From assembly GCA_947305255.1 (NCBI GenBank), contig CAMZDE010000002.1:1-48963 (forward strand): DNA of 48,963 nucleotides, written 5' to 3'. This stretch comes from an uncultured Alphaproteobacteria bacterium (GTDB lineage Bacteria > Pseudomonadota > Alphaproteobacteria > Rs-D84). A model generated the notes under the pieces. That model saw only the letters and a list, made by a program, of their open reading frames with translations. It did no database searches and was not told the origin of the DNA. Every line of letters begins with the position of its first letter. The stretch's first letter is position 1. Of the stretch, positions 1,831 to 48,963 are shown in pieces. The position numbers and the translations under genes were made by a program.

Positions 1831-2391
1831 TTACACAGACATAATGTCGGCTTCTTTTTGCTTTGCCATAGCATCAACTTCGCTGGCGCGACCGTCAAAA
1901 ACTTTCTGCAAATCTTCTTCGTATTTGCGTTGATCGTCTTCTGAAATTTCTTTGTCAGTAACTGCGCGTTTAATTTTTCCCATCGCATCTTGGCGAATAT
2001 TACGCATAGAAATCTTAGCATCTTCGGCGTATTTGCCGGCAACTTTGGTCAATTCACGACGACGTTCTTCGGTTAACGGCGGCAAATTCAAACGAATAAC
2101 ACCGCCCGCAGTCATCGGATTCAATCCCAACCCAGAATCACGAATCGCTTTTTCAACGGCGCCTGCATTGTTTACGTCCCAAACCGTCACAGACAACGTT
2201 TGGGTGTCTGGGGTTGACACTGTCGCAACCTGATTCAAAGGCATTTCAGCACCATAAACCGGTACTTTGACCCCGTCCAGCAAATGCACAGATGCACGGC
2301 CTGTGCGCAATCCGGCGAATTCATTTTGCAACACTTCCAACGTTTGTGCTGTCTTTTGTTCTACTTCTGATTTAAGGCTGTTATAATCCAT
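1831..2391 (-). CDS. frr: Ribosome recycling factor
   Basis: 186 aa, full-length RRF-like sequence (GLRTGRAS, LNLPPLTEERRRELTK). Confidence 0.95.
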   Translation of the reverse strand: MDYNSLKSEVEQKTAQTLEVLQNEFAGLRTGRASVHLLDGVKVPVYGAEMPLNQVATVSTPDTQTLSVTVWDVNNAGAVEKAIRDSGLGLNPMTAGGVIRLNLPPLTEERRRELTKVAGKYAEDAKISMRNIRQDAMGKIKRAVTDKEISEDDQRKYEEDLQKVFDGRASEVDAMAKQKEADIMSV

Positions 2392-2483
2392 AATAAAAAC
2401 TCCTTGCGTTTATTCTATGCAAAAAGATTAGCAAAAAGATTTGACTTTTTGCAAGAAGAAATATAAAATGAGTTTCGCACTAT

Positions 2484-2703: not shown

Positions 2704-2781
2704 GGCGGGCGTAGCTCAGTTGGTTAGAGCGTTGGTTTGTGGTACCAAATGTCGCCAGTTCGAATCTGGTCGCCCGCCCCA
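2704..2781 (+). tRNA. tRNA-His (anticodon GTG) with encoded G-1
   Basis: Acceptor GCGGGCG/CGCCCGC preceded by an extra G opposite discriminator C73. Anticodon loop TTGTGGT, T-arm GCCAG-TTCGAAT-CTGGT, encoded CCA. Confidence 0.88.
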
Positions 2782-2789
2782 TTAAATTA

Positions 2790-2816
2790 AAAAATGCCCG
2801 AACGGGCATTTTTTAA
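2790..2816 (+). terminator. Intrinsic terminator after the tRNA-Ala/His pair
   Basis: ATGCCCG-aa-CGGGCAT stem followed by TTTTTT. Confidence 0.7.
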
Positions 2817-2850
2817 TTTAACTGAGACAGAATGTCTCGGATTCGAACTG

Positions 2851-2967
2851 GCCAGTTCGACAAAATAGCAGTTGAGAACGAGTGAAACGCAGTTCGAAAC
2901 GTTGCGATTTGGAAAGGGGCCCACGAACGCAGTGAAGTGGGAATATACAATCTGGTCGCCCGCCCCA
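2851..2967. repeat. T-arm-bracketed module H1 (split copy of the tRNA-His T-arm and 3' end around an ~88-nt GC-rich insert)
   Basis: GCCAGTTCGA (identical to 2754-2763 of tRNA-His), then the insert, then AATCTGGTCGCCCGCCCCA (2949-2967, a 19/19 match to tRNA-His 2763-2781). Confidence 0.6.
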
Positions 2968-3041
2968 TAAAATTCAACTCCACCAAAACGGTGGGGTTAA
3001 ATTTTATCAAGACGTGCGACCTGATTCTAGAAATGGTGGAC

Positions 3042-3138
3042 CGCCAGTTCGACCCGCAGGCGAGAGGCAGACGGAAGTATGCCGGTGAGCAAAGCGAACG
3101 AGCCAAGGGAGTGGAGCATAGCGAAACAATCTGGTCGC
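3042..3138. repeat. T-arm-bracketed module H2 (second split tRNA-His T-arm copy; its insert shares a core with the tRNA-Lys locus)
   Basis: CGCCAGTTCGA, then CCGCAGGCGAGAGGCAGACG...GCAAAGCGAACGAGCCAAGGGAG..., then AATCTGGTCGC. The insert core recurs at 26693-26755. Confidence 0.6.
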
Positions 3139-3772: not shown

Positions 3773-3848
3773 AGCCATGGGATACCGGATTCGAACTCAT
3801 AAAAATTTTCCATTTGCATCGATTAAAGATTTTTGATAATATAACCAT

Positions 3849-4024
3849 GTCAGCGAGAGTTTCGCTGATGGGGCTTCAGAACCCGCTTGCTGTTCGTTGG
3901 AACGACGTGAAAATTCTCCAATATATGGTTGGAGAGCCGTGAATATATAAATAAACGGCGCAATTTAACAGCAAATTGTTCTGAATCTCCAACCACCCTT
4001 AAAAACGGTGGTTGTTTCTTTTGT
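3849..4024 (+). promoter_or_regulatory. Structured leader, copy A (hairpins P1-P5 plus terminator/antiterminator), upstream of a secreted paralog
   Basis: Sigma70-like promoter TTGCAT-17-TAATAT ends a few nt before GTCAG. Hairpins: TCAGCG/CGCTGA and CTCCAA/TTGGAG. GGTTGGAGA (3927-3935) is complementary to TCTCCAACC (3987-3995), which overlaps terminator CCAACCACC/GGTGGTTG plus a T-run (to 4024). Confidence 0.65.
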
Positions 4025-4047
4025 TGGCACAAAAATGGAGATGAACA

Positions 4048-4587
4048 ATGAACACAAAACGAATCATATCAATTGCAATAATGTTTACGTTGCCAGTAAT
4101 GGCACACGCGGAAAACATATCGGGGGCGATGTATACTGCGCCGGCGCACGCGGATACGAATCACCCCGCACCAACGACACAAGCGAATGCATCGTATGGC
4201 CGTATTAATATAGATACCGCTGACCAAGAACATATCGCCACCACCGCATATGTTAAGGGTGCCTATAACAGCGCAATTGCGGCGGTGAATAAAGTTGCTG
4301 TGGGTGTGGGTGAAAAACAGGATGTTTTGACTACTGCTAGTGATGAGTCAATCCAACCCTTTGTGATTGATGAAGCATATATGCTTGACATATTGCAGGC
4401 CATTAATGATATAGACATGTTTGGGGAGGCTATATCCACATATGATGATATGTTAATCACGGCAAAAGGGGCGGCCGCAGGAATAACAGGTTACGTGAAT
4501 TCCAAAGGTGTTGAAATTTATACTACGTGGGACGATGATGAGGCGACGACCGATGTAGCATTAAAAACCGTCTTGCCCGATGATTAA
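4048..4587 (+). CDS. Secreted protein, paralog family member A (conserved N- and C-termini, variable centre)
   Basis: Signal peptide MNTKRIISIAIMFTLPVMAHA. Shares ENISGAMYTAP..DTNHPAPTT..YGR.NID..DQ.HIATTAYVKGAYNSAIAAVN and a C-terminal IYTTWDDD..ATT motif with 14268-14792 and 25528-26157. Confidence 0.75.
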   Translation: MNTKRIISIAIMFTLPVMAHAENISGAMYTAPAHADTNHPAPTTQANASYGRINIDTADQEHIATTAYVKGAYNSAIAAVNKVAVGVGEKQDVLTTASDESIQPFVIDEAYMLDILQAINDIDMFGEAISTYDDMLITAKGAAAGITGYVNSKGVEIYTTWDDDEATTDVALKTVLPDD

Positions 4588-14267: not shown

Positions 14268-14792
14268 TTAATCCGCCGTGGACAATGTCACCTTGGTCGT
14301 CGCATTCGCGCTATCGTCATTCCACGTAGTGTAAATTGTGACGCGCTTAGAGTTCAAGTAGCCACCGAGCGAATCAAGACTATCGTATATAGATGTGGCG
14401 ATATTGTCAATTGCGCCACCAACATATTCCGCGTCCACTTTGTTTTCTTGAATGTTTTGTATATCACCTTGAATTAAGCCTATATGGTCGTCAAAGCCTT
14501 GCATTGTTGATTCAAAAGTATCAAATGATACTTTCTCGTTATTGACTTTATTCACCGCTGCAATCGCACTGTTATAGGCGCCCTTGACATATGCGGTTGT
14601 TGCGATATGTTCTTGGTCGGTGGTATCTATGTTTGCGCGACCATATGGTGCGGGCACATTTGTTGTTGGGGCTGGGTGATTTGTATCTGCCGCGGCGGGC
14701 GCGGTGTACATGTCACCCGATATATTCGCAGCGTTCGCCATTAACGGCAACGAAAGCATTATTGCGATTGGTAGTATTGTTTTTGTGTTCAT
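14268..14792 (-). CDS. Secreted protein, paralog family member B
   Basis: Start moved to MNTKTILPIAIMLSLPLMANA, behind the RBS AAGGAGAGG. Shares the same conserved N-terminal block and the C-terminal RVTIYTTWNDDSANATT motif. Confidence 0.75.
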   Translation of the reverse strand: MNTKTILPIAIMLSLPLMANAANISGDMYTAPAAADTNHPAPTTNVPAPYGRANIDTTDQEHIATTAYVKGAYNSAIAAVNKVNNEKVSFDTFESTMQGFDDHIGLIQGDIQNIQENKVDAEYVGGAIDNIATSIYDSLDSLGGYLNSKRVTIYTTWNDDSANATTKVTLSTAD

Positions 14793-14820
14793 TTCGTCCT
14801 CTCCTTTGCTTTGGTTATCA

Positions 14821-15006
14821 CAACACAAAACAACCACCCTTAAAATAAAGGCGGTTGGAGGTTAAGAACAATTTAATCCGAAATTGCGCCGTTTATTCTT
14901 TATATTCACAGCCCTCCAACCATTTACTGTTGGAGATGTTTTACGTCACATCCCTGACGCGGATTAACAGAGGTTCTTAAGCCTCATCAGAAAAACTCTT
15001 TCTGAC
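14821..15006 (-). promoter_or_regulatory. Structured leader, copy B
   Basis: Same architecture as copy A, read on the minus strand. P1 is TCAGAAA/TTTCTGA (compensatory relative to copy A). GGTTGGAGG is complementary to CCTCCAACC. Terminator CAACCGCC/GGGTGGTTG plus TTTTGTGTT. Confidence 0.65.
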
Positions 15007-15059
15007 ACACCCATATTATCATTTTTTTAAAAACCAAACAAGAACAAAATTAACACTAT

Positions 15060-15087
15060 AAAAAACGCCCCATCGGGCGGTTTTTTA
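15060..15087 (-). terminator. Intrinsic terminator (ends the 15991->15085 operon; sits upstream of the leader B promoter)
   Basis: CGCCCC-atc-GGGCGG hairpin with flanking A and T runs. Confidence 0.6.
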
Positions 15088-15619: not shown

Positions 15620-15991
15620 TCACATTACACCTTTTTGTTCGCAATCAAAATAAAATCGTGCCAGAAATCTATATATCAAAGATTGGTGTTGATGAATGCT
15701 AAGGTTGTCTTGATAATTTTGCGCTTCGTAAGTTTTTATAATATCCAATAATAACTTATCAAAAGACTTTGAACCCGCTGGGCAGAAAATTTTTTCATCT
15801 TTGACACAAATTATATCTTCAATCAGAGCGCTATCCCGAATTATAGAAAAAATCTTTTCATTTGTTTTTTTATCAAACACGGAATAATCAAAATCTGTTT
15901 TGTTTCCTTTAACTATATAAATGTCGGCTTTGTACAATATCTTGGAAAGTTTTATTATAATTTTTTCTCTGAAATCAGATGTATATTTCAT
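15620..15991 (-). CDS. Hypothetical protein (123 aa), first gene behind leader copy C
   Basis: Start placed at MKYTSDF, behind the RBS GGAGGTGG. No signal peptide and no recognised domain. Confidence 0.5.
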   Translation of the reverse strand: MKYTSDFREKIIIKLSKILYKADIYIVKGNKTDFDYSVFDKKTNEKIFSIIRDSALIEDIICVKDEKIFCPAGSKSFDKLLLDIIKTYEAQNYQDNLSIHQHQSLIYRFLARFYFDCEQKGVM

Positions 15992-16004: not shown

Positions 16005-16195
16005 GTTTTGAAAACATCAACCGCCACAAAATGGCGGTTGGAGGTTCAGAACTATAAAAGTGGTATAGTGTGCTTTATTCAATATATTCAGCAGCCCTCC
16101 AACCATAGTCGGAGATTTTACGTCAACGATTCAATAGAATCGCAGACGCCACTTTTCAAGGGTTCTGACACCCCATCAGAAAAACTCTTTCTGAC
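16005..16195 (-). promoter_or_regulatory. Structured leader, copy C
   Basis: Same helices as the other copies. P4 is CTCCGAC/GTTGGAG with a G-U pair. P5 is ACTATA/TATAGT where the others have CAATTT/AAATTG. Terminator CAACCGCCA/TGGCGGTTG. The promoter block at 16196-16255 is near-identical to 15007-15065. Confidence 0.6.
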
Positions 16196-16324
16196 ACACC
16201 TATATTATCATTTTTTTAAAAACCAAACAAGAACAAAATTAACACCATAAAAAACGCCGCCCATGTTGCGCCTTTTTGGGGTGTGACGAACATGGACGAC
16301 GGGTTGGTTTTTAATGTCCCGATA

Positions 16325-25249: not shown

Positions 25250-25318
25250 CCAAGAAGCAAATCAGCCCCTGAATTTTTTTGTTTGCGTTGAATTTCAAAA
25301 TTTGATAAAATAATCAAC

Positions 25319-25502
25319 GTCAGAAAGAATATTTTCTGATGGGGTGTAACGACCCGTGTCGAACTGCGTCAGGGATGACGTAAAATTTCTCCAACATATG
25401 GTTGGAGGGTTGCCGAATATATAGAATAAGGCACACAATTTCAGTTCGAATTGTCGTTAACCTCCAACCACCCGATTCTTTTTCTGGTGGTTGTTCGTTG
25501 TT
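25319..25502 (+). promoter_or_regulatory. Structured leader, copy D
   Basis: Promoter TTGAAT-17-TAATCA, then GTCAGAAA.../TTTCTGA, P3 CGTCA/TGACG, P4 CTCCAAC/GTTGGAG. GGTTGGAGG is complementary to CCTCCAACC. Terminator CCAACCACC/GGTGGTTG plus a T-rich tail. Confidence 0.65.
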
Positions 25503-25527
25503 AAAACCAACAGAAGGAGAGGAAACT

Positions 25528-26157
25528 ATGACAACAAAATCAATATTATTTGCGATACTTGCAACATTGCCATTTGTCGCACGTGCAGAAAATATATCAG
25601 GGGCAATGTATATCGCGCCGTCCGTGGCAGATAACAATCATCCCGCGCCAACAACAAACGCAAACGCACCGTATGGTCGTGTGAATATTGATGTCGCCGA
25701 CCAAGACCATATCGCCACAACTGCGTATGTCAAAGGTGCGTATAATAGTGCGATTGCAGCGGTGAATACATCAATTGATGAAGCAGTATCAGAAACAATT
25801 CGTGTTCTTGAACAACAAGGGTTATATGATAAACAAGATAAATTATTAAATGCCGATGGTGACGAAATATTACAAGATGTAACATCTGGTTCGCAAATAG
25901 ATTCGGAGATTGGTAATAGTCTTGTAAATTTGTACGACGATGATGAATACGAAGCGTTTAGAGATGATATTATTAATGGTTATGGTTTTGAACCTGATAC
26001 TAGTTTAATGACAGCTGGTGCAATATTTGACACAATACATTATGTAAATAAACATCTTGTTGACGCCATAGGCGAAAAACGTGTCACAATATACACAACC
26101 TGGGACGATGATAGTGCAAACGCCACGACGCAGGTATCTTTGACAAGCGCAAATTAA
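25528..26157 (+). CDS. Secreted protein, paralog family member D (longest central insert)
   Basis: Start at MTTKSILFAILATLPFVARA, behind the RBS AGGAGAGG. Conserved N-terminal block and C-terminal RVTIYTTWDDDSANATT. Confidence 0.75.
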   Translation: MTTKSILFAILATLPFVARAENISGAMYIAPSVADNNHPAPTTNANAPYGRVNIDVADQDHIATTAYVKGAYNSAIAAVNTSIDEAVSETIRVLEQQGLYDKQDKLLNADGDEILQDVTSGSQIDSEIGNSLVNLYDDDEYEAFRDDIINGYGFEPDTSLMTAGAIFDTIHYVNKHLVDAIGEKRVTIYTTWDDDSANATTQVSLTSAN

Positions 26158-29986: not shown

Positions 29987-30997
29987 ATGCATCTAAATGA
30001 GTTAACACATGTCACCTTTGCTATAACAAGAAAATGTAACTTATCTTGTATTTGGTGCTATGAAAATGCATCAAGAAATAGCAAAGAAGTTAAATTATCA
30101 GATGTTAAATCTGTTATTGATCAGTTGGCAAAATTACCTCGATTAAAAAGGCTTGTTTTTACGGGGGGAGAACCCTTTATGCATAGCAATATAAGGGAGA
30201 TTTTAGATTATTGTTTTGAGAAAAATATCAATCATGTGCACATAACGACTAATGCTACATTAGATATTGAGAAGGTTTTAAAAGATTATGTAGGTAAAAA
30301 TTTGTCGTTAAGTGTAAGCGTTGATGGTATGGAAGATGTGCATGATGCTATTAGAGGGAAGGGAACTTTTAACAAAACCATTTCAAATATTCAAAAAGCT
30401 ATTGCGTTGGGTTTTGCTGTAAGTGTGACAACAACGGTATCAAAAAATAATATTGAAGCTGCCGCAGCCTTGGCAGATTTCTTGAAAGAATGCGGAATAG
30501 TAAATTTAAAATTCCAAAGAATGCGTTCACTGGGCAAAGGTGCCACACAGAATGATTTGATATTGTCTCAAAAAGATAACAAGGTTCTCACAGAACGTAT
30601 TCTCAACATAAAAAAAGAAACGGTTGGTAAGATTGGTGTCGGTTATAAAGATCCATTTTTGAATACAATTGATTTAGAATATCTTGATAAGTATAAAGAT
30701 ATGCTAGATAGTTGTATTTGTGGCGGTTGTAGATGTGGTATGAGTTATTTGTTTATAACTGTAGACGGTGATGTGCACCCTTGTCCTTTCTTGAAAATCA
30801 AATTAGGTAATGCGTTTTCTGAGAACATAGGCGATATTTGGTTAAATTCTGAATTATTACAAGCTTTTAGGGTAAAAGAAAATTATAACAAATGCAAAGA
30901 TTGCAAGTTTTGGGGTGTTTGCCGCGGTTGCAGAGCAGAGGCATTTATCCATACCAAGAATATTTTTGGAGACGACCCCGGATGTTGGAGAAATTAA
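29987..30997 (+). CDS. Radical SAM enzyme with a full C-terminal SPASM domain
   Basis: CNLSCIWC (CX3CX2C) at residues 17-24. C-terminal CGMSYLFITVDGDVHPC (CX10GX4C), CKDCKFWGVCRGC and a final GCW. RBS AAGAGGAAG. Confidence 0.88.
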   Translation: MHLNELTHVTFAITRKCNLSCIWCYENASRNSKEVKLSDVKSVIDQLAKLPRLKRLVFTGGEPFMHSNIREILDYCFEKNINHVHITTNATLDIEKVLKDYVGKNLSLSVSVDGMEDVHDAIRGKGTFNKTISNIQKAIALGFAVSVTTTVSKNNIEAAAALADFLKECGIVNLKFQRMRSLGKGATQNDLILSQKDNKVLTERILNIKKETVGKIGVGYKDPFLNTIDLEYLDKYKDMLDSCICGGCRCGMSYLFITVDGDVHPCPFLKIKLGNAFSENIGDIWLNSELLQAFRVKENYNKCKDCKFWGVCRGCRAEAFIHTKNIFGDDPGCWRN

Positions 30998-31656
30998 CCC
31001 TTAAAGAGCAGAACGCAATTTCACAACTTGCTAAAACCGTTGGTACGGTGATTATGGTTATTGTTTACGGTTCCAGGTTGCACAAACTTAAAACTAATGA
31101 TATTGATGTCATATTTGTATGTGAGTCAATAACTAGCCTTGCCAAAATAAATACCGTAAATAATGAAATACTTGCAACTAGTGGGGTAAATATTCATCCG
31201 TTTATAATACCTTTGCACACGTTGATGTACAAGCTATCCTTGGGTGACCCACAGACATTGACATTTTTGAAATATGGTTTCATATTAAAAAATCTTTTGT
31301 TTACAAAGACATTTTTATCTGACTATATATCAAAATTGACCACAAAATCCGAAATTTATGAATTATTATTACAGAAATTGGATGATTGTTTGTTGAATAT
31401 AAAAAAATGTTTTAATTACAGGGATGCAAATTTTATTTTAATATCTATATGCCAATTGATTTGCAGAGATAACGGTTTTATTCCTCGCTTTCCAAATGGA
31501 GGTTTGTTTGAACAGGCGGCTTCATTATGCCCCAAACTAAGCTTTTTGATATTAGAAACAGCATCTGATTATAAAATAAACAAACGTTCATCTGAAAACA
31601 CAATTAAATTGATGGAAAAGCTTATTCAAAACTATAAAAACCTAAAGGGGTTATAA
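30982..31656 (+). CDS. Nucleotidyltransferase-fold (Pol-beta superfamily) protein with a helical C-terminal domain
   Basis: Start moved to MLEKLT, a 16-nt overlap with the upstream gene. VYGSRLHKLKTNDIDVIFV fits the G-S-x9-13-D-x-D minimal NTase motif. No HEPN Rx4-6H motif seen. Confidence 0.6.
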   Translation: MLEKLTLKEQNAISQLAKTVGTVIMVIVYGSRLHKLKTNDIDVIFVCESITSLAKINTVNNEILATSGVNIHPFIIPLHTLMYKLSLGDPQTLTFLKYGFILKNLLFTKTFLSDYISKLTTKSEIYELLLQKLDDCLLNIKKCFNYRDANFILISICQLICRDNGFIPRFPNGGLFEQAASLCPKLSFLILETASDYKINKRSSENTIKLMEKLIQNYKNLKGL

Positions 31657-32759
31657 TGGCTACTAAAAATACGTTTTTATTTTACGATAAGAATAGCAGA
31701 AAAGCCTTTGTCGCAAAAAACGTTCAAGGCACTTATAAAAATAATCCTGAATTGATGAACGAATTGGCAAAACACAACATTTCTGATGATAGTTTAAAAA
31801 ACGGTTCTGTTTCTGTGATAAAAGCAAATAAGAATTATTTTCAAGCTCCGCATCAAATAATGATAGAGCTTACAAAGAAATGTAATTTTAAATGTATTTA
31901 TTGTTGCATAGATTGTGAACATAATGTGTGCAATAACGATTTAACCCATGAAGAGTTTATACGGCTTATAGAAGATATTGTTAAACTGAAACCGAACATT
32001 GTGACATTTACTGGGGGCGAACCGTTTTTAAGGGAAATTACCCATAATGATTTATTTGATGCGATGGAAATATTAACAAATAATGGTATCAATTGTGAGA
32101 TATTTACGAATGGTTCTTTAATAAGTCGATATGCTGATAGAATAGGAAAGTTAAACATTCACAATCTGAAAGTATCTATTGATACTGTTATTGAAGCCGA
32201 GATGCATAAAATCAACCAGGTTATTGATCAACTGGAAAACGTCAAAAAAGGTATAGAGATTTTGACAAAAAACCACATTTCTTTTAGTGTGAATGCGGTT
32301 ATTTTAAAGCATAACTGTGATAATATTGATAAATTGATGGAATACTTATCAAAGCAAAGCATCAGAACTCTTGTCTTTATCAGAGCTTTACCACGTGGAG
32401 GTGGTGAACGCATCCAGCGAAATTTATTAACAAATACAGAATGGGAACAATTCATAGATAAAATATCTGGTCTTTCTAAAGAATACGGTTTTGATATGAT
32501 TGATAGTGGCAGTCATTCTTGCCCGCGTTGTAACATATTTAATACATGTGCTATGTGCAAAGCAGGAATTAGCTTTATGTTAATTAAACAAAATGGGGAA
32601 GTTTATCCTTGTGGATTTGCAACTAGTAAAAATATGGGCAATGTAAAGCAAAAAAATGTTGGTGAAATATGGAAAGATGCTGTTTGGAATGAATGTCGTT
32701 GCAACGGTGTGACGTGTATAACAAAAAGAAAAGATGTTATTACGTTGAAAAAAGTTTAA
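31656..32759 (+). CDS. Radical SAM enzyme with a ~70-aa N-terminal extension and a reduced (twitch-like) SPASM region
   Basis: The ATG overlaps the upstream stop (TAATG). CNFKCIYC (CX3CX2C) at ~residues 75-82. C-terminal CKAGISFMLIKQNGEVYPC (CX12GX4C), then only CRCNGVTC. Confidence 0.85.
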   Translation: MATKNTFLFYDKNSRKAFVAKNVQGTYKNNPELMNELAKHNISDDSLKNGSVSVIKANKNYFQAPHQIMIELTKKCNFKCIYCCIDCEHNVCNNDLTHEEFIRLIEDIVKLKPNIVTFTGGEPFLREITHNDLFDAMEILTNNGINCEIFTNGSLISRYADRIGKLNIHNLKVSIDTVIEAEMHKINQVIDQLENVKKGIEILTKNHISFSVNAVILKHNCDNIDKLMEYLSKQSIRTLVFIRALPRGGGERIQRNLLTNTEWEQFIDKISGLSKEYGFDMIDSGSHSCPRCNIFNTCAMCKAGISFMLIKQNGEVYPCGFATSKNMGNVKQKNVGEIWKDAVWNECRCNGVTCITKRKDVITLKKV

Positions 32760-41854: not shown

Positions 41855-42182
41855 CAACGGCCAGATAATAAAATATAAGACACCACAACAAAATTTAACA
41901 CTTCAATCAACAGGTTATGTTTTATCAAATTTTAACAATTTTTATAAATTATTATTTGATAAATCCCTCTGGTGTCCCACAGAAATAGTTTATTCTTTGT
42001 GTTAGTCCTTTGGTTCTTGTTTTGTGATGCCAAACGGATTGTTGGGCATCGGTTCGTTTCCTTGATTAAAATTATACATCCATTGTTTTATAAAAACAAC
42101 TTTAAAAAAAGCATTCTTTTTTGTGGCACCAGTTTTTTAATCTGACATCTATGGGGGGTGGGGGAACACCACAGAAACAAGT

Positions 42183-43901
42183 TTATACTTGAATGAAAAA
42201 TGTGATATTAAAACTGTCTATGCGTTCAGGATATGATGAAAATTCTTTGTTTGTGAATTCAAAATGGTCATTGTTGTATTTATTTTTGGGTGTAAATTGA
42301 ATATCTGACGGTGACAAGTGTGTTGCACCAGTCAAATATGATGCACGGACACCCCAAGCGGCTTTACTGTCTTTTAAATTGTTAATGATATATTGCATAC
42401 CGATACCATATCTGAAAACTGCTTTGTCATTATTGGAAACATTATGCCCATTTGTAGTAGTGCTACCATCGGCAGATATGTGAAACACACCAAGTGTCCC
42501 GATACCAAATACAGATAATTTTCTGCCAATGTTTATACCAAGATTTGAATATAACAACTCATAATACTCTGTGGCTATTTCAGCAGAATGATGGCTTGTG
42601 TGCAAATTATAAGTTGAATCAAAATTCATTTTGGCTTTTTGTAAAGATAGATAATTGAATTGTGCACCAGCCCCTAAATACAAGTATTTCAATTTGTATG
42701 ACAAGCCCAAATCAAGGTTAAAACCAGCATTTTTTTGTCCAAAACTTACGCCTGCACCCAATAAGATATTTTTTGTTGAGGTCGGATATTTTGAAAATTC
42801 TAATTCTTGGCTTGGATAATAAGTTGTTTCACCCCCATTTATTCTTAAACTTTTTTCTATGTCAAAAAATCCGGCTTTTGAAAATACCAAATCTTGTTTT
42901 TTATCTGGGGACAATTCGCCTGTGGTGTTGCCTGTGACGGCTTTGCCATTAACAGATATTTCAACACCAGGATTGCGCACCTTAAAGGCACTGAAATCAA
43001 TCTTGCCGGGCAATTTTTCCATATTAAACATATATTCTGATTCTGAATATTTAGAAAAAGATACTGTTCGTGTAATATCAACGGCTTCCGAATTCTTTGC
43101 GGTTATCTTTTGTTCTATGCCAAATTGTGCATTAAAATTAACAGGTTCTTTACCATAATCCACGTCGTTAATAAAGATTCTGGAATCACCCAAAGACGTT
43201 CGAATTTTTATGTTCTTTGTCCCACGTTTAAGTGTTTTTGATATTTTACCATTCGTTGGGACAATCAAAGTTTCATTGACGTCAGAATAATTTTCTTTGG
43301 TTATTTCAAGTGTGTGTTTTCCATTGCAAACATTGCCAAATTTAATTGGGGATTCGCCTTGATATTTTCCATTGTCTATCGTCACAAATGCTTTTGCTGG
43401 TGTTGTTATAATTTCAACAGGTGCACCTTTGCAGGTTGTGTCGCCAACACTTTCATTGAAAACAACCGTTAAAGCAGATTTTGGCAATTTTTCCAATCTT
43501 TGTTTTTCTTGTTTGAATTCTTTTTGTGAATACCTATACTGAACACAACCAACCCAACCACCAGATTCTTTGCTAACGTCACTTTTTTGGCGTTCAAGAC
43601 CTTTTAATGAAATTGTCCCAATAGACCTTTCATAAGAACGAGTTGTGCCTGCACTGGTGGTTGTATCAGAATAAAATTCAGATTGCACATTCAATGCTGT
43701 GCCAAATAAACGACCGATTTGATTATCTATGTCACGTTCTGCTTTGTTTGCGGCATCTGCTGCGCTGGTTTCTGAATATGATTTCGCAACCAAATATTTA
43801 TATGTCGCATCATCTGGTGGTGTGGTTGTTGCCCAATCGCACCCTGCAAACGAATTACCAGATAAAAAGATGCCCAAACAAAATATAGCAGAACGTTTCA
43901 T
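42183..43901 (-). CDS. Lipoprotein with PEGA-like repeats and a C-terminal beta-barrel-like domain
   Basis: Lipobox SFAGC at residue 20. Three segments resemble PEGA domains (e.g. AKAFVTIDNGKYQGESPIKFGNVCNGKHTLEITKENY). The C-terminal ~200 aa have alternating G/Y/hydrophobic strands. Confidence 0.6.
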   Translation of the reverse strand: MKRSAIFCLGIFLSGNSFAGCDWATTTPPDDATYKYLVAKSYSETSAADAANKAERDIDNQIGRLFGTALNVQSEFYSDTTTSAGTTRSYERSIGTISLKGLERQKSDVSKESGGWVGCVQYRYSQKEFKQEKQRLEKLPKSALTVVFNESVGDTTCKGAPVEIITTPAKAFVTIDNGKYQGESPIKFGNVCNGKHTLEITKENYSDVNETLIVPTNGKISKTLKRGTKNIKIRTSLGDSRIFINDVDYGKEPVNFNAQFGIEQKITAKNSEAVDITRTVSFSKYSESEYMFNMEKLPGKIDFSAFKVRNPGVEISVNGKAVTGNTTGELSPDKKQDLVFSKAGFFDIEKSLRINGGETTYYPSQELEFSKYPTSTKNILLGAGVSFGQKNAGFNLDLGLSYKLKYLYLGAGAQFNYLSLQKAKMNFDSTYNLHTSHHSAEIATEYYELLYSNLGINIGRKLSVFGIGTLGVFHISADGSTTTNGHNVSNNDKAVFRYGIGMQYIINNLKDSKAAWGVRASYLTGATHLSPSDIQFTPKNKYNNDHFEFTNKEFSSYPERIDSFNITFFIQV

Positions 43902-43921
43902 AATTGCCCCCCTGATGCGTT

Positions 43922-44521
43922 TTATTCGTTCACAATGGTATATTGTTCATTTACCATTAAATCCCATTGCTGGGCGGCTTTTTTCTTTAAATCTTCGGAA
44001 ATGCCTTTGTTCTTATTTAATGTGCGTTCTATCGCTTGTTTAAGGTCGCTTTCGCTTATTTTTACACGTGCATATATTGAATAAAACATTTCTTTGTCTT
44101 CTTCGGCATTAACAGTGCTTAAAACCTTTTCCCAATAACGGTCGCTAACAATCGCTTTTGACATCAGTGCCTTTGCTGATTCTGTGCTGACAAATTGAAC
44201 CTGGTTAGCATCATAAGACGTGCCTTCTTCGGCATTTTGGAACATATATGTTAAATTTTGGTTTATTGCGCTGGCAATGGAATTTTTTGCATTGTTTTCT
44301 GCTATTCTATACCCCATAGAAACATTTGCCTTTTCAGCAGGAATACGTGCTTGCCCCAAGAAATACAAATCTGAACCTTTCTTGGTTAATGGGGTGCTTT
44401 CTTTTACCCACGATGGACGTGAAGATAAATTGTCACTGCGTTGTATAACTTTATCTGACATACCGCCACCACAGGCAGCCAAAATCAAAGACATAGATGT
44501 TGCAAATACGAATTTTTTCAT
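43922..44521 (-). CDS. Lipoprotein, LPP20-like
   Basis: Lipobox LAAC (MKKFVFATSMSLILAACGG). YFLGQARIP...MGYRIAENNAKNSIASAI resembles the LPP20 family; the N-terminus of the downstream gene has a similar block. Confidence 0.55.
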   Translation of the reverse strand: MKKFVFATSMSLILAACGGGMSDKVIQRSDNLSSRPSWVKESTPLTKKGSDLYFLGQARIPAEKANVSMGYRIAENNAKNSIASAINQNLTYMFQNAEEGTSYDANQVQFVSTESAKALMSKAIVSDRYWEKVLSTVNAEEDKEMFYSIYARVKISESDLKQAIERTLNKNKGISEDLKKKAAQQWDLMVNEQYTIVNE

Positions 44522-45013
44522 AATGTTATCCTTTTGTGTAAAAATGAAGACCGCCCAGAAAGAAAGGGCGGTCGGGAGCTCAAAAATCAGTATGTTATTG
44601 ACTCTGTTGCTTTCGGGTTGCCCCTGTTTTATGACAACAAACTCCCGACCATAAGTCAGGAATTATTACGATGCAAAAACACCGCAATATCAACTTCACG
44701 ATGCTTTCGCACCGAACATACTGGGCTTTTGAAACCCAACCGGTCTTTCTAACCAGTCCTTTATATTTTACAACAAGCAAACAAATTTTTCAACCAGCAA
44801 AGTGATATTTTCCCTTTGGGGATATATTGTGTGTATATAGGGGGTGGGGGTGGCCAGTGAATAGTGGAGTGATTGGTTAATAAAGCATACGGTGTAAAGG
44901 GTTGTATAAAGGGGTGATGTATAGGGTGGTTATATTGCTGTGCTGTGTCCACAGGTTAATGTCCGTCCATCCGTCTTTTTATAAATAAAAAGGACGGACG
45001 GACAGACGTGGGT

Positions 45014-46051
45014 TTAATCGGGGAACATTGACTCGTTCAAATCTTCCAAGTCAATTACCTTTGGTTCTGGCTCGGCAGGGACAGATTCTTGCGCTGGTTC
45101 AGTTTTTAATTGCTTGGCAAGTTCACCAACCGTTGATTTGCTGATGCCAGTTTCTGATTCTATATCCCTGTATGATTTGCCTTGGGACAGCAAATTGCCA
45201 ACCATTTCAAGTTTTTTTGCTTTTTCTGCTTCTCTTTTGGTTTGGTCGGCTGTGTCAGTTACTTTGAATTCCGACCAAGACACAAACCCTTTATCGCCAA
45301 CGGTTTCCAATTGAAAGCCGATAGGTTTAAGAATAGAACCTGCAACATTACGTGATTTTTGATACTTCATAACGAACTTTGCACCATCGGTTACATTGTA
45401 TGATACTGGTTTTTCCAATGATACCACGGCATCCATAATGTCTTGTTTTTTACTGGTTCCACGATTGCCGTGTTCGGGGTCTTTGCCCGAATGGTCAATC
45501 AGCAAAACAGATTTGCCACGACGTTTCAAGTCAATTAACCATCTTTGCATTGGTGTCCAACTTTCTGCTTCGTTTTCCCTGCCAAACGAACACAATGCAG
45601 AAAGGTTATCTATGATTATAAGTTCACAATCACCCAGCAGTGCGGTTATTTGTTCTTGGCCTTTTTCATAACCTATATTTGGCAACGGTTTTTCTGACAG
45701 GTCATTGGATAGAATTTTGAACCTATCAAACGTGTCGGGGTTGCACAAGTCCATTCCAAATCCCAAATTGGTTATTCTGTCTTGGAAATCTTTGCCTGTC
45801 ATTTCCCCGTCAATGTATAATACAGAACGGTTTTTTTTGACGGTGAAATTAAACACATTTTTTCCACTTGCGATGGCCATTCCTAATGTCATTGCAAAAT
45901 ATGTTTTTCCAATACCACGTTGGGCATACAATATGGTCAAGGATTTTTCCTGAATGAACGGATATGCAATCCATTCACGTTCTGGAATTTTCATTTCCAG
46001 CAGGTTACGCAGTGAAACCACTGAATATTGTGGGGTGTTATTGTCTGCCAT
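45014..46051 (-). CDS. AAA_25/RepA-like P-loop ATPase with a C-terminal HTH
   Basis: Walker A AQRGIGKT, Walker B LIIIDNLS, RecA/DnaB-like core, and a C-terminal SYRDIESETGISKSTVGELAK. Confidence 0.78.
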   Translation of the reverse strand: MADNNTPQYSVVSLRNLLEMKIPEREWIAYPFIQEKSLTILYAQRGIGKTYFAMTLGMAIASGKNVFNFTVKKNRSVLYIDGEMTGKDFQDRITNLGFGMDLCNPDTFDRFKILSNDLSEKPLPNIGYEKGQEQITALLGDCELIIIDNLSALCSFGRENEAESWTPMQRWLIDLKRRGKSVLLIDHSGKDPEHGNRGTSKKQDIMDAVVSLEKPVSYNVTDGAKFVMKYQKSRNVAGSILKPIGFQLETVGDKGFVSWSEFKVTDTADQTKREAEKAKKLEMVGNLLSQGKSYRDIESETGISKSTVGELAKQLKTEPAQESVPAEPEPKVIDLEDLNESMFPD

Positions 46052-46197
46052 TTTGCACCCCCTTTGTTACATACCACGTGTTGGATTGCGGGAAATACAA
46101 CTGAACAAGGCCAGAATTAACTTGTAAAATTGGCTGTTCCAGATTATAATCATACGTGAAGCAAGTGGTGCCATTCGTTAATGCGATGGCACCCCAT

Positions 46198-46425
46198 TTA
46201 TTGTTTATCATTGTTCACCCCCTTTGGTTGAGGATTTGATTCCAACCAATCGAAAAACTTGGGAACGTTGATTAACAGTTTGCGACCAAGGGTGCAGACA
46301 GCACCACTGGATACCAAACCATTCGTGTTTCTGAAAAACAGAAGATTACGCAATCCGCCCATTTTGAAAGCGGGATTATTTGCAACGAATTGTTGCGGTG
46401 TTTGAAGCATATTATTGTCAAACAT
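46198..46425 (-). CDS. Excisionase/AlpA-like small DNA-binding protein (tentative)
   Basis: 75 aa. The ...LGRKLLINVPKFFDWLES ending resembles the GR..f....l..WL tail of excisionase-type HTH proteins. Its position is typical for an island. Confidence 0.4.
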   Translation of the reverse strand: MFDNNMLQTPQQFVANNPAFKMGGLRNLLFFRNTNGLVSSGAVCTLGRKLLINVPKFFDWLESNPQPKGVNNDKQ

Positions 46426-46578
46426 ACTTTTACTCCTTATGTTAATTGTTTTTACAGATTTTCATAATCTGTTATTGAACATATAAGGAATAACAAGTTT
46501 GGTTACGATTCCAGACCGATTGTCTGATTTTGCTTTTGTAATCAGCAGAAATCAAGGATTGTTATAAAAAATGTGTTT

Positions 46579-47472
46579 TTACGAATTTTTCCAAAAATCA
46601 CGAATTCGTTTCAGATTATGTTTGTTATTGAAATATGTTATAAACGCATTTATTTGTCTGCGGGACAAACCAAAATCTTTATTCAGGTCAGATTTTATGT
46701 CAGCAGTTCTTGTGTATTGTTTGCCAGATATTTCAAGATGTTCTGCAACAAAATCAAATCCAATATTATCCCTGTTTGCCAATCCACACAAATGCTTGTT
46801 ATGGAATTGAAGCACAGATTTAAATGCGGAAGTGATTGCGAAGTTGTCGCATTTACAAGTGGTTTTTCTAATGCCAAGAATATACGGAACAAGAAAGAAT
46901 ATAACCGCTGTGAAAATTTCATCTGGATATGCACCAAATGCGCTGAAAAAACTTGGTCGCATAAACAGGGCTGTTTCAAATGGAATATAATGCGATGGTT
47001 TGTATGGGTCTTCGGTCTTTCTGGAACTCACGACACGTTGTGCATAAGTGTTAGGGCCAAATTTTATCTTTCTTCTCTCATAGTTTGCATTTTGATGGGC
47101 TCGGGCATTTGCCAAATGTTCGGCAGGGGCCTTTTGTTTGTAAAATTCAATAAAAGCACGTTCCAAATACCAAGGAAATAGATTAACGCATATATTTTGG
47201 TGCTCTTCACTGGGAATATATTTTTCAATTATTTCAAGACCTATTTTTATCAGTTTGTTCAATCTGATTAACTGTGTTTTGGTTATATTGGAATAATCAA
47301 AGTTTGGGAATAAATACCCACCAAGTTTGTTCAATATTTCGGCATAACTGCATTTTTTCCTGGGATACAAATAAGAAAATGTCGGCATCAAATGGGTTTT
47401 GACATTATATCCAACCTGATTTTGAAAATCACTTTTTCTTAATGGTAAAAACTTGAATGGAATGGTGTTCAT
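46579..47472 (-). CDS. Hypothetical island protein (297 aa)
   Basis: Long ORF whose start overlaps the integrase stop (ATGA). No recognised motif. Confidence 0.5.
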   Translation of the reverse strand: MNTIPFKFLPLRKSDFQNQVGYNVKTHLMPTFSYLYPRKKCSYAEILNKLGGYLFPNFDYSNITKTQLIRLNKLIKIGLEIIEKYIPSEEHQNICVNLFPWYLERAFIEFYKQKAPAEHLANARAHQNANYERRKIKFGPNTYAQRVVSSRKTEDPYKPSHYIPFETALFMRPSFFSAFGAYPDEIFTAVIFFLVPYILGIRKTTCKCDNFAITSAFKSVLQFHNKHLCGLANRDNIGFDFVAEHLEISGKQYTRTADIKSDLNKDFGLSRRQINAFITYFNNKHNLKRIRDFWKNS

Positions 47473-48545
47473 TGTTCTGTTTCCCCAAATATTTTGTTGG
47501 CCATTGTTTCCACAATGGTTTGTGAATGTTCATCGGATAGGTGTGCATACCTTTTTGTCATTTGCAAGGTCTTGTGGCCCAAAATAGCGGCAATTTCAGC
47601 CATTGAATAACCGTTCATAGCCAGATACGATGCACAGGTGTGTCGCAAATCGTGAAAATGGAAATTTTCAAGACCAGCATCTGCCATTGCTTTATACCAA
47701 CTGCGCTGGATATCAAATGGCTTGGTGCCATCGTGGCTTGGAAACACATAAACGTCATTTGGTCTGCGGCTGGCATATAATTTATGCAATTCTGCCAGTG
47801 CAGGCCCAGCCAATGGCATATAACGTCTTTCACCATTCTTGGTGTCTTGCAATATTGCACGTCCAGCATTCAAATCAACATCCTGCCATTTTAACGACAT
47901 TATTTCCATTCGTCTGGCCCCTGTGGTTATGCCAATTAACACAGCAGGGTGCAGATAAGGGTTGTTTGCTTTCTTGGTTTCAGCAAGCAAATTTTCACGT
48001 TCTGCATCAGTTAAATAACGCACGCGGCCACGTGGTTCAGATAATTTGGATATCTTGATTACAGGGTTGTTTTCTAACCATTCCAATTCACGCACTGCAT
48101 ATGACAGCATAACAGATAATGCAGCCATATAGCGGTTAATTGTTGCATTGCTTTTTTTCTTTTGCAATCTGGCATCTTTTGATTCTGCGATTTGATTGCG
48201 TGCTTGAATCAGCAAGGATGGTGTCAAACTGGATAAAGCATATTGTCCCAGCACGGATTTCCACATTCTGATATGTCTGATGGTGTCAACAGATGCTTTT
48301 TTAGGGTTGGCCTGCAAATGTTTTTCATACAGGTCAGCCAATTCAGCCACAGTGTGCTTTTGCGATTCTATAACTGAAAAATTCGCACCCTGCAACATTC
48401 TGGCTTCGGTCATCTTGGCCCAAGTTTCAGCAGCGGTCTTGGTTGGGAATGTTTTTGATACTTTGGGATAACCAAATACGCAAACCCTTGCACGATAACT
48501 GACTTTATTTGTTTTCTTTGATGGTCGTTTTTCTATTGTCGCCAT
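47469..48545 (-). CDS. Tyrosine site-specific integrase
   Basis: Start at MATIEKR, behind the RBS AAGGAAAG. Catalytic ARRMEI (R), HDLRHTCAS (HxxR) and LGHKTLQMTKRYAHL (Y). Adjacent to tRNA-Asn. Confidence 0.9.
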   Translation of the reverse strand: MATIEKRPSKKTNKVSYRARVCVFGYPKVSKTFPTKTAAETWAKMTEARMLQGANFSVIESQKHTVAELADLYEKHLQANPKKASVDTIRHIRMWKSVLGQYALSSLTPSLLIQARNQIAESKDARLQKKKSNATINRYMAALSVMLSYAVRELEWLENNPVIKISKLSEPRGRVRYLTDAERENLLAETKKANNPYLHPAVLIGITTGARRMEIMSLKWQDVDLNAGRAILQDTKNGERRYMPLAGPALAELHKLYASRRPNDVYVFPSHDGTKPFDIQRSWYKAMADAGLENFHFHDLRHTCASYLAMNGYSMAEIAAILGHKTLQMTKRYAHLSDEHSQTIVETMANKIFGETEQ

Positions 48546-48878
48546 TTTTTCTTTCCTTTGTGTTTGTCTGACTAACAGGGTCAAACAATGTCTTTCAATT
48601 CTGCTTCGCTTCGTCTTGTTTTTCTGACAATAAGAATCACAATCCGTCTGTCAATATAGTGCAACAACGCAGAATTTCAAGGGTTATTGTGTGTCCCATT
48701 TAATTCTTGGGACACTGGTGGGATTTGGAAAACAAAACTTGCCGCAAATCCGATGGTTTTGTGCGCTGGTTGAATGTGAATTATGTTGTGAATTTTTATA
48801 TTCGTTTATCTGGTGTGTCCCAAATGTGTCCCAAACACATAAATAAAAAAAGCGGGAATCTGCTGAATCCCGCTAAAT

Positions 48879-48926
48879 TCGTGGCTCGGGCAACTGGACT
48901 CGAACCAGTGACATACGGATTAACAG
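48879..48926 (-). repeat. att direct repeat (within the intact tRNA-Asn)
   Basis: 48/48 identity with 41807-41854. Confidence 0.85.
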
Positions 48927-48957
48927 TCCGTTGTTCTACCGACTGAACTATGCCCGA
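48882..48957 (-). tRNA. tRNA-Asn (anticodon GTT)
   Basis: Minus-strand cloverleaf: acceptor TCGGGCA/TGCCCGA, anticodon loop CTGTTAA, T-arm ACTGG-TTCGAGT-CCAGT, discriminator G, CCA. Terminator at 48848-48878. Confidence 0.9.
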
Positions 48958-48963
48958 ATAACG

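Follow-up and report, generated by a model that had tools for sequence, protein, structure and literature searches.

A window of 48,963 nucleotides was analyzed, positions 1 to 48,963 of contig CAMZDE010000002.1 (GenBank assembly GCA_947305255.1) from an uncultured alphaproteobacterium of the order Rs-D84, in which a structured leader RNA of approximately 160-190 nt recurs in front of genes. A preliminary description had reported four copies of this leader, each behind a sigma70-like promoter and a short distance ahead of a gene start. All four (copies A to D) were recovered with significant scores by both a profile hidden Markov model (HMM; E = 2e-35 to 4e-29) and a covariance model (113-136 bits), and their mean column identity in alignment is 76%. 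A fifth, divergent copy E, which precedes a signal-peptide gene, was detected by the covariance model at 41 bits (E about 2e-7). In copies A-D a promoter-like -35/-10 lies immediately 5' of the leader, the terminator hairpin (CAACCRCC/GGYGGUUG plus a T-run) closes it, and a ribosome-binding site (RBS) and ATG follow 20-30 nt on, in keeping with the promoters and gene starts described earlier. The neighbors of the copies are housekeeping genes (frr, uppS, cdsA, ligA, a PBP1-type gene, RNase E/G, recG, ackA and cysS). The genes behind copies A, B and D encode three paralogous signal-peptide proteins with conserved ends (~80 N-terminal and ~25 C-terminal amino acids, aa) and a hypervariable middle. 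Pfam gave no match for any of the three, which have the appearance of a variable family of surface or secreted proteins. Coordinates are collected in Table 1.

Relatives of the leader were sought in two pattern scans over one genome per species, each of which returned at least 119 matches; the retrieval pattern required GGTTGGAG..GAATATA..AATAA. Among the matches listed, the profile HMM recognized 161 copies in 139 loci. A covariance-model search for relatives, as suggested in the preliminary description, gave 116 and 52 matches in two locus batches, and the family comprises at least approximately 170 copies, with several per genome and some loci coming from one genome. True copies were found, among the matches listed, only in metagenome-assembled genomes of gut and rumen Alphaproteobacteria, which are labeled Candidatus Enterousia, uncultured Alphaproteobacteria or 'Rickettsiales' and belong to the order Rs-D84. 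The Rs-D84/Enterousia bacteria are uncultured and are widespread in human and livestock guts. Genomes of the order measure 0.75-1.0 Mb and lack the tricarboxylic acid cycle and respiration (PMC12306168). In IMG/VR contigs classed as viral, 12 pattern matches comprised three full copies (L236, L237 and L238) and one partial copy; these three loci may represent prophages, or else chromosomal fragments of the same lineage that were misclassified.

At gathering thresholds, Rfam 15 found four tRNAs and nothing else in the window, and tRNAs only in 15 related loci holding approximately 25 copies. Membership of any Rfam 15 family was rejected because no gathering threshold was reached by the leader in the window or in the 15 loci, and a permissive E-value scan of copy A gave chance-level matches only (E of at least 1.8). 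A full-text search of a literature library on the lineage and the motif sequences found no description of this leader RNA. The leader is a new, previously uncatalogued cis-regulatory RNA family, as had been surmised when it was first described as matching no known riboswitch class.

The cassette arrangement seen in the window extends to the family. A -10-like hexamer is phased 35-40 nt 5' of helix b in 95 of 146 copies, and at least 115 of 146 relatives have a 5'-terminal hairpin of at least 5 bp (P1). The leader ends in an intrinsic (Rho-independent) terminator: 135 of 147 copies have at least 6 of 8 stem pairs, and the tail of 123 of these 135 contains 6 or more U. An RBS and start codon lie no more than 150 nt behind the stem in 115 of the 135, at a median distance of 29 nt (10th-90th percentile 21-43 nt). 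The terminator thus stands ~20-45 nt ahead of the gene, and 133 of the 161 copies have an RBS-bearing open reading frame (ORF) directly downstream. A leader peptide was considered and rejected: an ATG ORF reaches seg1, the first of the switching segments described below, in 48 of 94 leaders, these ORFs are spread over three frames, and only 10 of them have an RBS. No leader ORF, frame, start codon or RBS over seg1 was conserved among the 94 leaders.

To describe the structure, the P2 and 'P5' of the preliminary description are here called hairpin a and hairpin d, and P5 denotes the stem that closes a conserved loop. Pairing was examined in two alignments: A3, a MAFFT alignment of 72 diverse copies that was not fitted to any structure, and a covariance-model-based alignment of 116 copies. 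The controls were 500 shuffles and the sliding of 3' partners by 1-3 columns. In each of four counts over 72-116 relatives, 89-97% of cells were paired, compared with 77-82% in the shuffles and 30-54% with slid partners, and none of the 500 shuffles reached the observed value in any count. In A3 alone 89-93% of cells were paired versus 30-54% when slid, and the 116-copy alignment presented the same pairing picture. A failure of covariation once more homologs were added had been named beforehand as grounds for abandoning the structure; with these relatives the covariation holds.

RNAalifold applied to A3 returned a long-range helix b:b' (columns 10-16 with 153-160), P3, P4, the P5 hairpin and the terminator. 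Each of the three central pairs of b:b' occurs as four pair types, with 31-38 of the 72 copies changed on both sides, and covariation extends to all five pairs of P3 and all three pairs of the P5 stem. In the terminator, pair 171:192 is found as A-U (48 copies) and as G-C (20 copies). For hairpin d, pair 131:152 is divided evenly between A-U (32) and U-A (32) in A3, and 69 versus 42 in the larger alignment. Hairpin a is 93% paired in A3 and 93-94% over both alignments, while P4, which is sequence-conserved within A3, is 96% paired there and 96-98% across both. A second long-range helix, c:c', has a wholly different sequence in each copy (in the window, A UUGCUGUU/AACAGCAA; B UUAAUCCG/CGGAUUAA; C AAAAGUGG/CCACUUUU; D UCGAACUG/CAGUUCGA), and its longest Watson-Crick run averages 7.3 for cognate strands versus 4.2 for non-cognate strands (n = 147). 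The loop of hairpin d is exactly c', and the loop of hairpin a is b. Among helix mismatches and wobbles there were 130 G-U versus 32 A-C, an excess which indicates that the RNA is read from the leader strand, as expected; together with the phased -10 box, this excess excludes a chance origin.

The helices of the preliminary description (P1, P3, P4, hairpin d and the terminator, with the overlap of P4, antiterminator and terminator) recur over 72-116 relatives, but that model was incomplete, with b:b', c:c' and the P5 stem absent from it. The GAAUAUA..AAUAA stretch, which it took to be single-stranded, is the loop of the covarying P5 hairpin. Three further features were tried and discarded. A closing helix a:a' (GGGG with CCUC), taken from the minimum-energy fold, has its 7:162 pair unpaired in 25 of 72 copies, and column 162 pairs with seg2. 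Inspection of A3 by eye for tRNA mimicry (RCC behind seg3) and for a palindromic kissing sequence within the loop of P5 showed that neither is conserved.

Four successive segments, seg1 to seg4, make up three mutually exclusive helices, all of which covary: seg1:seg2 (P4), seg2:seg3 (the antiterminator) and seg3:seg4 (the terminator). Segment seg2 reads GGUUGGAGN and seg3 reads N'CUCCAACC. The antiterminator is 98.6% paired in A3 and approximately 99% across both alignments, and its ninth pair in A3 is G-C in 44 copies, U-A in 20, U-G in 3 and A-U in 2. In 69 of 72 copies the base that opens seg3 (column 162) is paired with the final base of seg2, whereas the nucleotide 5' of seg1 is unconstrained. 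The 9-bp antiterminator helix, longer than P4, is therefore kept for its own sake. In copy E all four segments (seg1 UUCCUGAC, seg2 GGUCGGGAG, seg3 CUCCCGACC and seg4 GGGCGGUC) have changed compensatorily, and other divergent loci carry the seg2/seg3 combinations GGUCAGGAGG/CCUCCUGACC, GGCAGGAGG/CCUCCUGCC and GGUCGGGA/UCCCGACC. These divergent copies, which were found through the covariance model and not through the sequence pattern, are compensatory mutants supplied by nature, in which P4, antiterminator and terminator are all tested simultaneously. The leader thus contains what is expected of an attenuator, a selected alternative helix that shares the 5' arm of the terminator. The overlap of P4, antiterminator and terminator had been proposed from the four original copies, and both the covariation of the ninth pair and the concerted change of seg1 to seg4 in divergent copies bear it out.

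The 3' half of the leader (seg2, P5, hairpin d, b' and seg3) also occurs by itself, directly behind a promoter. At L175, 2776-3119 (-), two such module-only leaders stand in a row, each ahead of a 65-aa ORF, and at L059, ~2367-2461 (+), there is one leader without the 5' domain. The minimum-energy fold of a module-only leader is the antiterminator three-way junction. In all 72 full-length leaders, by contrast, a nested model favors the terminated over the antiterminated fold, by a mean of 12.6 kcal/mol, and the default state is thus predicted to be OFF. Because the module alone folds open and the full leader folds terminated, the 5' half would serve as an anti-antiterminator encoded in cis, with pairings to the module at three places (seg1-seg2, b-b' and c-c'). 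One locus, L049 at 2775-3122 (-) of CARVLU010000003.1, consists of a promoter, four tandem 3' modules and one terminator with no ORF behind, and is convergent with a GAPDH gene. The compensatory seg2:seg3 pair is particular to each unit (GGUUGGGGU/ACCCCAACC in one of them), and this transcript might act as a decoy or sponge, or else be a multi-aptamer RNA. A scan for further tandem arrays with the pattern AATAA N{32,60} CCAACC N{5,12} GGTTGGNG gave chance matches, with no true copy among the matches listed. The P5 loop GAAUAUAUUGAAUAA is nearly invariant in A3. Since a hairpin is inserted in the middle of this loop in L049, L128, L221 and copy E, it is better termed a purine-rich internal loop, with GAAUAA facing AAAUAAG. 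Most of the copies found by the model only keep a GAAUA...AAUA loop (L168, L131 and L059:2518).

The ORFs downstream of the leader fall into many unrelated clusters and are non-metabolic; most encode orphan secreted or surface proteins or small helix-turn-helix (HTH) proteins. Two clusters of small HTH-like proteins have 24 and 14 members, and some of the small HTH genes sit ahead of housekeeping genes. Other targets include many signal-peptide proteins that are cysteine-rich or otherwise orphan, as well as lipoproteins, a type I restriction-modification methylase subunit, an ABC transporter and a glycosyltransferase. A Pfam search of the regulated proteins gave almost no matches.

Taken together, we consider it likely that the leader is a genuine new cis-acting terminator/antiterminator switch, a judgment that does not cover the identity of the effector. 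Each copy would be a self-contained cassette of sigma-70-type promoter, leader RNA, intrinsic terminator and gene, and since the terminator stands ahead of the gene, expression would occur only upon read-through. Segment seg2 would pair either upstream with seg1, forming P4, or downstream with seg3, forming the antiterminator. Because seg3 overlaps the 5' arm of the terminator, the antiterminator and terminator would exclude each other. With the loops of hairpins a and d taken up as strands of b:b' and c:c', the leader as a whole would toggle between two folds. In the closed fold, the predicted thermodynamic default, P4, b:b', c:c' and the terminator would form and the gene would be OFF. In the open fold, the 3' half would adopt its autonomous three-way junction of antiterminator helix, P5 and hairpin d, and the gene would be ON. 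Read-through would then need an effector that stabilizes the three-way-junction fold, most plausibly by recognizing the conserved purine-rich P5 internal loop (GAAUA...AAUAA). A trans-acting RNA-binding factor appears slightly more likely in this role than a metabolite or small molecule. We lean to such a factor because the regulon is non-metabolic, the junction strands are variable, the copy number is high and the tandem RNA is decoy-like, but a second-messenger riboswitch would fit nearly as well.

Several points weigh against this mechanism. Termination and read-through are predictions from sequence. P4 forms ahead of the transcription of seg3 and the closed fold is far more stable, and the sequence by itself does not account for the open fold ever winning. 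Instead of competing with the antiterminator, b:b' and c:c' could also form a pseudoknot alongside it. Ascertainment explains part of the apparent invariance of seg2 and the P5 loop, both of which the retrieval pattern demanded. Copy E, L130 and L149 have other P5 loops, that of L149 being a plain hairpin, and the sponge-like tandem array is a single example (L049).

Among known systems, the 1:2/2:3/3:4 attenuators of trp, his and pyrBI resemble this family in their four successive segments, in their mutually exclusive anti-antiterminator, antiterminator and terminator, and in having the gene right behind the terminator; the family differs from them in lacking a conserved leader peptide and in having two extra long-range helices and a conserved hairpin loop. 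As in ON riboswitches built on a three-way junction (pbuE adenine and c-di-GMP-I), the closing helix, here seg2:seg3, shares its 3' strand with the terminator, and c-di-GMP-I riboswitches are likewise multi-copy with a non-metabolic regulon. Unlike these, the family has no Rfam match, no known ligand and no conservation of its junction strands, and it has a dedicated 5' domain that pairs with three parts of the junction module. The conserved hairpin at the terminator could be a protein site, as in protein-dependent leaders (BglG/LicT-RAT, ANTAR, PyrR, TRAP and LoaP), and an anti-antiterminator is also used in PyrR-type logic, although here it is the default state and is not induced. Neither sequence nor shape matches any of these systems, however: a dual hexaloop, a RAT and GAG/UAG repeats are all absent. 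The decoy-like L049 transcript, with its promoter, four tandem 3' modules, terminator and lack of an ORF, recalls the CsrB/RsmZ sponge RNAs, as would a decoy for a module-binding factor, but is a single example, has no GGA motifs and has no known binding protein. Two specific assignments were rejected. A T-box leader is contradicted by the lack of an Rfam T-box match and by downstream genes that are not tRNA synthetase or amino-acid genes, isolated cases aside, while inspection of the alignment shows loops of 15 nt (P5) and of a variable 6-10 nt (hairpin d), which do not correspond to an ANTAR target with its two tandem hexanucleotide-loop hairpins (A at position 1, G at position 4).

One rival explanation is a true riboswitch, in which direct binding of a small molecule (a second messenger, say, or a cue from the host) tips the leader between terminator and antiterminator. 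The ligand would sit in the P5 internal loop or in the junction of c:c', P3, P4 and P5. A large, intricate covarying fold with an overlapping expression platform is typical of riboswitches and the purine-rich loop nucleotides are highly conserved; the subclasses with altered P5 loops could be specificity variants, and the reduced 0.75-1.0 Mb genomes of Rs-D84 (PMC12306168) could, we infer, favor RNA sensors. We nevertheless regard this as a tentative alternative, since the targets are orphan secreted or surface proteins, small HTH proteins and a restriction-modification subunit instead of transporters or enzymes that would point to a metabolite, since the b' and c' junction strands vary and leave no conserved junction core, and since a stand-alone RNA of four modules has no gene to regulate. 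That there is no dedicated effector seems improbable. Such a fixed or physically tuned attenuator, responding to transcription speed, NTP pools, temperature or Mg2+, would set a low uniform expression, with the 5' hairpin stabilizing the mRNA. The minimum-energy status of the closed fold in 72 of 72 leaders, the conservation of the 5'-terminal hairpin and the fact that no effector was found all accord with it, but purifying selection specifically preserves the antiterminator helix and hairpins a and d, for which a constitutive terminator would have no use, and the P5 loop is conserved without a pairing partner.

The element might instead be an independent gene for a trans-acting small RNA, with its own promoter and an efficient-looking terminator, whose position 5' of genes is incidental; one stand-alone tandem version does lack an ORF behind it. 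This is very improbable given the RBS and start found within 150 nt in 115 of 135 copies, at a median of 29 nt, a spacing too short to accommodate another promoter, and given the covariation of the antiterminator. Least credible of all is a repeat acting at the DNA level, either a REP/MITE-like element or an attC-like recombination site. The multi-copy, imperfect inverted repeats, the resemblance of GTTGGAG and CTCCAAC to the GTTRRRY and RYYYAAC core sites, and the presence of one copy inside an integrase-bearing island are what recommend it. The promoter, U-run and surplus of G-U over A-C (130 vs 32) are strand-specific, however, and the long-range compensatory helices are formed by fully divergent sequences; the phased promoter and the G-U excess were taken to rule out the repeat or attC reading. 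Copies have their own promoters, stand 5' of genes and are scattered on both strands among housekeeping genes, with no cassette array by an integron integrase, which also led us to reject an integron attC site.

Table 1. Positions of the leader copies, their structural elements and the genes behind them in the 48,963-nucleotide window
Feature	Position	Strand	Remarks
Copy A, leader	3847-4022	+	
Copy A, promoter-like site with TGATAATAT	3813-3842	+	TTTGCA, 16 nt, GATAAT = 3813-3840
Copy A, P1, 5'-terminal hairpin	3849-3856 / 3862-3869	+	at least 5 bp in at least 115/146 relatives
Copy A, local hairpin a (GGGG ... CCC)	3870-3884	+	loop is strand b, 3875-3882; family pairing 93-94%
Copy A, long-range helix b:b'	b 3875-3882 / b' 3978-3985 (GUUCUGAA)	+	central three pairs covary
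Copy A, long-range helix c:c'	c 3887-3894 (UUGCUGUU) / c' 3967-3974	+	cognate-run test
Copy A, P3 hairpin	3895-3907	+	all 5 pairs with changes on both sides
Copy A, P4, putative anti-antiterminator hairpin	seg1 3915-3922 / seg2 3927-3935 (span 3915-3935)	+	96-98% paired
Copy A, P5 hairpin	stem 3936-3939/3956-3959, purine-rich loop 3941-3954 (span 3936-3959)	+	stem covaries
Copy A, hairpin d (CAAUU/AAUUG)	3961-3978	+	loop is c', 3967-3974
Copy A, seg3 (UCUCCAACC)	3986-3994	+	antiterminator partner of seg2; overlaps 5' arm of terminator
Copy A, intrinsic terminator, CAACCACC / GGUGGUUG plus U-run	3990-4022	+	hairpin and U-run
Copy A, RBS (GGAGA) and gene A	4037-4587	+	secreted paralog, 179 aa; gene 4048-4587, ATG at 4048
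Copy B, leader	15008-14820	-	
Copy B, promoter, leader and terminator	14820-15041	-	seg1 14937-14929, seg2 14921-14913, seg3 14861-14853, terminator 14857-14822; 135 bits
Gene B, behind copy B	14792-14268	-	signal-peptide paralog; ATG at 14792
Copy C, leader	16197-16004	-	
Copy C, promoter, leader and terminator	16008-16230	-	seg1 16115-16108, seg2 16104-16096, seg3 16044-16036, terminator 16040-16011; 113.5 bits
Gene C, behind copy C	15991-15620	-	unrelated, 123 aa; ATG at 15991
Copy D, leader	25317-25502	+	
Copy D, promoter, leader and terminator	25288-25503	+	seg1 25388-25395, seg2 25400-25408, seg3 25461-25469, terminator 25465-25502; 136 bits
Gene D, behind copy D	25528-26157	+	signal-peptide paralog; ATG at 25528
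Copy E, leader	44740-44538	-	
Copy E, unit	44538-44793	-	seg1 44662-44655, seg2 44650-44642, seg3 44578-44570, terminator 44573-44540
Copy E, long-range helices	c 44722-44715 / c' 44596-44589; b 44733-44726 / b' 44586-44579	-	
Copy E, P5 loop	44634-44610	-	differs from other copies in the window: UCAUAAAACA, then GGGGCAACCC hairpin, then GAAAG
Signal-peptide gene behind copy E	44521-43922	-	

Copies B and C share approximately 60 nt of identical sequence 5' of their -10 boxes (15066-15079 and 16240-16275, -). This shared upstream sequence, and the position of each copy 3' of the terminator of the preceding gene, indicate a recent tandem duplication of the whole B/C cassette. The region from ~42100 to 48963, which carries copy E, looks like an integrated genomic island: a tyrosine integrase gene (47469-48584, -) lies beside a tRNA gene (48885-48957, -), and the island also contains genes for an AAA_25 protein (45014-46051) and a PEGA-domain protein (42183-43901). 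Elsewhere in the window, two adjacent radical-SAM/SPASM genes (29987-30997 and 31656-32759, +) possibly belong to a peptide-maturation cluster.

With at least approximately 170 members, covariation in every helix and natural compensatory 'mutants' for all three competing helices, the leader is a well-supported orphan switch. Its architecture is uncommon: the module is an autonomous three-way junction, and a domain encoded in cis base-pairs with it at three separate places. The occurrence of five copies in one 49-kb window suggests that the leader may be the main control of secreted and surface proteins used in dealings with the host or with partner cells. It is possible, though we put this forward only as speculation, that this leader serves as sensor for an RNA regulon spanning the whole genome of a reduced-genome gut symbiont, as either a new riboswitch class or a new RNA-protein antitermination system with an unusual built-in anti-antiterminator, through which one global cue (a second messenger or partner contact) would co-ordinate dozens of surface-protein and small-regulator genes, tuned by a multi-module decoy RNA. 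Identification of the effector would yield a new riboswitch ligand or a new RNA-binding regulator, together with a handle on the physiology of this uncultured lineage.

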